DNA from: Escherichia coli O127:H6 str. E2348/69
GTDB lineage: Bacteria; Pseudomonadota; Gammaproteobacteria; Enterobacterales; Enterobacteriaceae
Reading direction: 5' to 3' (one strand)
Length of the DNA stretch: 64,000 nucleotides
Assembly (NCBI RefSeq): GCF_000026545.1
Contig: NC_011601.1
In this document: positions 50,229-50,268 of the stretch, piece after piece
Position numbering within the stretch: the stretch's first letter is position 1
Layout: each line of letters begins with the position of its first letter
Position numbers and translations under genes: made by a program
The notes under the pieces: model-generated
Told to the model about the DNA's origin: nothing
Database searches by the model: none
What the model saw: only the letters and a program-made list of their open reading frames with translations

Positions 50229-50268
50229 AATAAGTCCGGACTGAGGTAAATCCCCGTCCGGACTTATT
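50229..50268. terminator. strong hairpin (perfect 13-bp inverted repeat) just after ynfM
   Basis: AATAAGTCCGGAC (50229-50241) and GTCCGGACTTATT (50256-50268) flanking a 14-nt loop. Confidence 0.4.

Follow-up and report, generated by a model that had tools for sequence, protein, structure and literature searches.

Directly downstream of ynfM in Escherichia coli O127:H6 strain E2348/69 lies a perfect inverted repeat, and the question it raises is what this element does and for which gene. The first-pass annotation of the locus had read the repeat as a very stable hairpin lacking a clear U-tract, and had suggested that it may be a protein-binding palindrome or an RNA stability element rather than a simple terminator. 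We analyzed the element within a stretch of 64,000 nucleotides of the chromosome (hereafter, the window) and in complete genomes of E. coli and related genera. Our reading, to which we assign a probability of about 0.88, is that the inverted repeat is a Rho-independent terminator located between two convergent genes, with its canonical orientation on the minus strand.

Structure and stability of the inverted repeat

An inverted-repeat search of the window recovered the repeat at exactly the coordinates originally proposed, with arms of 13 nt each that are 100% complementary and 14 nt apart (Table 1). The first arm begins at the fourth base past the ynfM stop codon, with 3 nt in between, which agrees with the placement given earlier. 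A run of six A residues on the plus strand reaches from the final base of this stop codon into the outer arm, of which it takes up the first two bases. The window contains two perfect 13-bp inverted repeats whose loops measure 3-30 nt, whereas 200 dinucleotide-preserving shuffles averaged 0.05 and only 7 of them held any such repeat. The inverted repeat adjacent to ynfM is real and far beyond chance. The folding check also bore out the claim of high stability, in that the folding energy of the 40-nt element is -22.2 kcal/mol for plus-strand RNA and -24.9 kcal/mol for minus-strand RNA (z about -6.7 to -6.9), and 0 of 200 shuffles were as stable. For the 55-nt segment from stop to stop, the minus-strand value is -25.5 kcal/mol. 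The minus-strand stem has an 8-bp GC-rich core that is extended by four inner pairs, GGGG/CCUC, which leave a loop of about 5 nt. Comparison with the covariance models of Rfam gave no relevant match to the hairpin, even at E values up to 10; chance matches were obtained elsewhere only.

Table 1. Features of the ynfM locus and of the control hairpin past mdtI (positions in the window)
Feature	Position	Strand	Remarks
ynfM (MFS transporter), CDS	48972-50225	plus	ORF list and RefSeq annotation; stop codon TGA 50223-50225
Predicted 3' end of minus-strand transcript	50223-50224	minus	Homology to the 3' terminus tabulated for K-12; coordinate transfer
A6 run of plus strand, U6 of minus strand	50225-50230	minus	With the adjoining UUA makes up the U-tract UUAUUUUUU
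Left arm, AATAAGTCCGGAC	50229-50241	.	3' arm of the minus-strand RNA hairpin
GC-rich core of left arm, GTCCGGAC	50234-50241		From sequence
Inter-arm segment, TGAGGTAAATCCCC	50242-50255	.	14 nt here
Right arm, GTCCGGACTTATT	50256-50268	.	GC core 50256-50263; 5' arm of the minus-strand RNA hairpin
Plus-strand tail past GC core, TTATTGCCTGC	50264-50274	plus	Weak U-tract for ynfM transcripts
Convergent small gene, 34 aa, MNPFIWVLIILMTLDALRELAGASSILGWLLTLV	50275-50379	minus	NF033695; stop codon TGA 50277-50275
Hairpin CGCTGCCCGCGCTGTCGGGCAGCG followed by TTTGAACATTATTTT	52064-52087	minus	Past mdtI; positive control for scoring

The other perfect 13-bp short-loop inverted repeat of the window, CATTAACAGGTGC-TGCATGTG-GCACCTGTTAATG at 10346-10379, lies in the uxaB-yneE intergenic region, downstream of a terminator-like hairpin of uxaB (10440-10425, minus strand) and upstream of yneE. 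It looks more operator-like than terminator-like, because no T-run adjoins it on either side.

A convergent small gene and its probable terminator

The minus strand opposite the end of ynfM carries a small open reading frame that converges on the hairpin. RefSeq names the gene in E2348/69 'KPN_01571 family protein' and gives it a 39-aa form starting at 50394, and the protein matches the NCBIfam model NF033695 ('trnsprt_adja_30') with 63.3 bits at a cutoff of 35. The 39-aa start assigned by PGAP is probably too long, since the conserved start is the ATG at 50379 (MNPF...), from which 34 aa are encoded in Escherichia and 30 aa in most other genera; the difference is a 4-residue C-terminal extension in Escherichia. 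The proteins share the conserved motif LDA-x-RE-xx-G-x-SS-x-LG. The dN/dS ratio of 0.10-0.30, calculated against E. albertii and divergent genomes labelled Escherichia sp. or E. coli, indicates that the open reading frame is under purifying selection, and at least 10 genera keep it in synteny with ynfM. Judged by its sequence, the product is a genuine, hydrophobic protein and is probably inserted into the membrane. PGAP annotates the gene in many E. coli genomes (e.g., E2348/69 and 042) but not in the MG1655 RefSeq record, where nothing is annotated between ynfM and asr; the K-12 equivalent of the open reading frame lies at about 1671001-1671105 of NC_000913.3. A literature search for the small protein, which took in Weaver 2019, Stringer 2021, and a paper on small genes of O157 Sakai, found no paper describing it. 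An identification of the minus-strand open reading frame with ydgU was rejected: K-12 ydgU sits downstream of asr, on the plus strand. No convincing sigma-70 promoter was found for the small gene, and a consensus scan of 49800-51200 contained no promoter-like site. In many genera (e.g., Enterobacter, Buttiauxella, and Cedecea), ynfM has no small open reading frame beside it and has different downstream neighbours.

Read on the minus strand, the RNA runs UGA-GCAGGC-AAUAAGUCCGGAC-GGGGAUUUACCUCA-GUCCGGACUUAUU-UUUUCAGG, so that the hairpin starts 6 nt past the stop codon of the small gene and is directly followed by UUUUUUCA; the U-tract counted from the GC core is UUAUUUUUU. The absence of a clear U-tract that had been remarked on before is a fair observation for the plus strand, where the tail is UUAUUGCCUGC, but does not hold for the minus strand, where UUUUUUCAGG follows the stem. 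The two strands were scored by a d'Aubenton-Carafa type function combined with modern energy parameters; the values are indicative only. With this function, the minus strand received +12.9 for the core hairpin to +21.6 in the best register (T-tract score 3.76) vs. -16.1, below threshold, for the plus strand (T-tract score 2.64). The minus-strand score ranks third among the 9 positive minus-strand sites of the 64-kb window. The same scan recovered the hairpin past mdtI (52087-52064), whose K-12 counterpart at 1672779 is a mapped 'primary' 3' terminus of mdtI in the TRS tables of Bar et al. 2023 (PMC10687069), and this coincidence supports the scoring. A simple consensus scan for terminators and promoters in 49800-51200 did not flag the hairpin downstream of ynfM, because its inter-arm segment of 14 nt exceeds the loop limit of 3-8 nt used there.

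Published maps of RNA 3' ends in K-12 MG1655 bear directly on the minus-strand reading. The arms of the hairpin in MG1655 are identical to those in E2348/69, the loop differs at 2 positions, and the A-run is 1 base shorter. In the TRS table of Bar et al. (PMC10687069), their own RNAtag-seq of exponential-phase cells in LB places a minus-strand 3' terminus here: its peak spans 1670946-1670955 and its dominant position is 1670950 (adjusted p values 2.8e-3, 4.2e-5, and 2.6e-6). There it is classed as 'Antisense, ynfM' and as an orphan, with the fold sequence GCUGGCAAUAAGUCCGGACGGGUAUUUACCGCAGUCCGGACUUAUUUUUCAG; this tabulated sequence is the ynfM-adjacent hairpin followed by UUAUUUUUCAG. The entry from the re-analysis of published data in the same source has its dominant position at 1670951, with a signal of 0.989 and p values of 8e-74, 0, and 3e-62. 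Positions 1670950 and 1670951 of NC_000913.3 are the T and the G of the ynfM stop codon, 1-2 nt past the minus-strand U-run. We infer that the 3' end in E2348/69 lies at the same place as in K-12. Among the rows listed from the TRS table for K-12, no plus-strand 3' end occurs near the hairpin; the portion of the Term-seq tables of Adams et al. 2021 that was covered lists no 3' end at the site, and the TERMITe supplements contain no entry for it. The mapping of 3' ends, which had been proposed as a check on ynfM transcripts, has turned up a terminus on the opposite strand, in the K-12 ortholog, with none for the plus strand among the rows listed. Most simply, the 'orphan antisense' 3' end of K-12 is the terminator of the small gene.

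These data suggest the following course of events. RNA polymerase would transcribe the 34-codon KPN_01571-family gene from 50379 to 50275 and, having passed its stop codon, would next transcribe AAUAAGUCCGGAC-loop-GUCCGGACUUAUU and then UUUUUUCA. The GC-rich hairpin is expected to form while a weak rU:dA hybrid occupies the active site, and the small-gene transcript would leave the complex at about 50223-50224, 2-3 nt into the ynfM stop codon. Termination on the minus strand is presumed to be independent of Rho. The A-run 5' of the stem makes the element nearly symmetrical, so that the same hairpin also forms at the 3' end of ynfM transcripts; there, it would probably serve as a weaker terminator, a pause site, or a block to 3' exonucleases, which would amount to bidirectional use. 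The minus strand therefore presents a textbook intrinsic terminator of a convergent small gene, with a 3' end mapped in K-12, and the earlier suggestion that the hairpin may not be a simple terminator stemmed from a reading of the plus strand alone.

Conservation of the hairpin and alternative readings

The locus was followed through the E. coli genome collection with a 54-nt query that extends from stop codon to stop codon. Of 5426 complete E. coli genomes, 5421 have the locus exactly once, and the matches always lie between ynfM and the small open reading frame; the search for the palindrome elsewhere in the genome, suggested at the outset, thus gave nothing beyond this single locus in those 5421 genomes. 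Four of the 5424 places are on plasmid-labelled records, and at least one genome has two places; the plasmid-labelled places may be large chromosomal segments on plasmids, or artefacts of assembly or labelling.

Eleven Escherichia alleles were compared, namely, those of E2348/69, K-12, an O157 strain, 042, PSJ-22, 2014C-3599, E. albertii, E. whittamii, and three divergent genomes labelled Escherichia sp. or E. coli. The helix is kept in all 11. Double compensatory changes occur at 3 of the 13 stem pairs (U-A to C-G, A-U to G-C, and C-G to U-A), and 98.6% of cells are paired in minus-strand RNA and 97.2% in plus-strand RNA, compared with no more than 51% after the partner register is shifted by 1-3 columns. 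Between the arms, both sequence and length (14, 16, or 17 nt) differ among alleles, and the minus-strand U-run, 5-6 long, is invariant. As read from this small sample of related sequences, the covariation supports the hairpin structure. The alleles also differ in how they affect the two strands. In the 042-type allele, of which 1168 of 5424 records hold an exact copy (about 21% of E. coli genomes), T is replaced by C in the left arm; the minus-strand RNA then has a U·G wobble and the plus-strand RNA a C·A mismatch, with folding energies of -21.5 and -15.9 kcal/mol, respectively. PSJ-22 has a further change of the same kind. In E. albertii, the effect on the two strands is reversed at one pair, with U·G on the plus strand and C·A on the minus strand, and this opposite asymmetry weakens the argument; the few independent events are suggestive of a bias toward the minus-strand stem.

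Outside Escherichia, a GC-rich hairpin lies between the two stop codons at every locus that has the convergent small open reading frame, except one (L065), where the stops are 1 nt apart. The sequences of these hairpins are unrelated between genera, and that of Escherichia is unlike those of Citrobacter, Klebsiella/Raoultella, Kosakonia, and Salmonella arizonae. Which strand bears the better U-run also differs: the plus strand does so in Kosakonia and Phytobacter, the minus strand in Escherichia and some Citrobacter. A position that is kept while the sequence turns over is the pattern of terminators, unlike that of protein-binding sites.

Extragenic palindromes between convergent genes of E. 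coli are often REP elements, so that the hairpin might have been a copy of a dispersed repeat or a mobile palindrome (REP/BIME, MITE, or the end of an insertion sequence). We give this reading almost no credence: the locus occupies one place per genome, always at ynfM, in the 5421 genomes mentioned above, its pattern matches once in the window, and Rfam gave no match. A REP-like element is refuted by the copy number. Slightly less improbable, and still very unlikely, is an operator for a dimeric DNA-binding protein, as the first-pass annotation had envisaged. The repeat is a perfect palindrome with a self-complementary core, GTCCGGAC, and Genomic SELEX peaks for RcdA and for RpoD holoenzyme have been reported in the ynfM-asr spacer. 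However, the arms change by compensatory substitution with no fixed sequence, the spacer of 14, 16, or 17 nt is variable in sequence within one genus, unrelated hairpins stand in its place in other genera, and the site is flanked by two stop codons rather than close to a promoter. Both the RcdA box (TTGTnnACA) and the promoter called for RpoD belong to the asr side of the spacer, and the box for HusR (YnfL) has no match on the hairpin, its count in the window being at chance level. The covarying arms, the variable spacer, the unrelated hairpins elsewhere, and the lack of a match to a nearby regulator together contradict a protein-binding palindrome. For the ynfM-asr spacer, the form TTGTnnACA / TTGTnTACA of the RcdA box has been reported (PMC3535384). 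An RcdA-box-like TTGTACA is present at 50530-50536, upstream of asr and about 260 bp from the hairpin, to which it is unrelated.

Possible role on the plus strand and relation to known terminators

Whether the terminator of the small gene also acts on ynfM transcripts is a separate question, and we put additional plus-strand activity at about even odds. For ynfM, the hairpin may be a weak terminator, a terminator that depends on converging polymerases, a mere protector of 3' ends, or irrelevant. A strictly unidirectional element would end the minus-strand small gene only, with the plus-strand hairpin as an unselected by-product, and ynfM transcripts would then be ended by Rho, by collision of converging polymerases, or by read-through and decay. 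The plus-strand score of -16.1, the lack of a plus-strand 3' end among the TRS rows listed, and the common 042-type allele, which weakens the plus-strand stem only, all favor strict unidirectionality, which we nevertheless consider somewhat doubtful. The plus-strand hairpin still reaches -23.3 kcal/mol with UUAUU directly past its GC core, and convergent-gene terminators can define the 3' ends of both strands when polymerases converge (bioRxiv 10.1101/2022.10.23.513370). The missing plus-strand end in exponential LB culture may reflect low expression of ynfM; because the gene is reported to be induced mainly in stationary phase, by HusR (PMC12844172), its absence from exponential-phase data is uninformative.

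The hairpin might alternatively stabilize ynfM mRNA by blocking 3'-to-5' exonucleases without causing termination, in which case it would sit at the 3' end of a processed or read-through transcript. Hairpins of the terminator type shield 3' ends against PNPase and RNase II. On the plus strand, a stable hairpin begins 3 nt past the stop codon, and such a role does not conflict with the terminator reading. Yet the plus-strand stem is weaker by about 7 kcal/mol in an allele present in about 21% of E. coli genomes, a finding that suggests weak selection on the plus-strand structure, and the literature yielded no data on the ends or half-life of ynfM mRNA. We regard this stabilizing role, one of the two originally proposed, as unlikely.

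Compared with known systems, the minus strand differs in nothing essential from the Rho-independent terminators of Enterobacteriaceae. It shares with them a GC-rich stem-loop followed by a U-run (UUAUUUUUU) a few nucleotides past a stop codon, a 3' end that, for the K-12 ortholog, is tabulated 1-2 nt beyond the U-run, and a stem that covaries while the loop drifts. The inter-arm segment of 14 nt is longer than textbook loops, but the inner pairs reduce it to a 5-nt loop. The element also resembles the bidirectional terminators of convergent E. coli genes such as ynaJ-uspE, in which one hairpin lies between convergent stop codons with asymmetric U-tract strength. This class was defined by SEnd-seq (Ju et al. 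2019), as described in bioRxiv 10.1101/2022.10.23.513370, and an A-run 5' and a U-run 3' of the stem would be expected of it, so that each strand reads as a hairpin with a U-tract; here, A6 is found on one side and only TTATT (tail UUAUUGCC) on the other. Overlapping 3' ends of the two transcripts would likewise be expected of that class; only a minus-strand 3' end is documented at the present locus, in K-12 and among the entries listed. Terminators of the ynaJ-uspE type are poor in either single direction (bioRxiv 10.1101/2022.10.23.513370), and the class is said not to resemble intrinsic terminators, whereas the hairpin downstream of ynfM looks like a strong classical one in the minus direction. 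Like REP elements, it is an extragenic palindrome that lies in a 3' UTR where two genes converge and that may influence the 3' ends of mRNA; unlike them, it is single-copy, has no REP consensus, and carries a U-run.

The arrangement also allows for interplay between the two genes. Since the small-gene transcript would end inside the ynfM stop codon, about 45 nt of its 3' UTR would be able to pair with any ynfM transcript extending as far as the hairpin. It is conceivable, though improbable, that the two genes regulate one another, either when their polymerases collide or when RNase III cuts the 3'-3' duplex; expression of YnfM would then be coupled to the conserved hydrophobic 30-34-aa peptide. 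By analogy with AcrZ and AcrB, the peptide may itself bind and modulate YnfM; a functional pairing of the two would fit the NCBI label 'transporter-adjacent' and the synteny across at least 10 genera.

As a terminator, the element is of a fully known kind, and its 3' end is already in a published table under the label orphan. An apparent hairpin without a U-tract has become a textbook terminator on the opposite strand, which has little significance beyond annotation. What is gained is that a published orphan 3' end of K-12 can now be assigned to a conserved small gene that is absent from the MG1655 RefSeq record, and the small peptide beside the YnfM transporter is the sole element of the locus that might repay experimental work.
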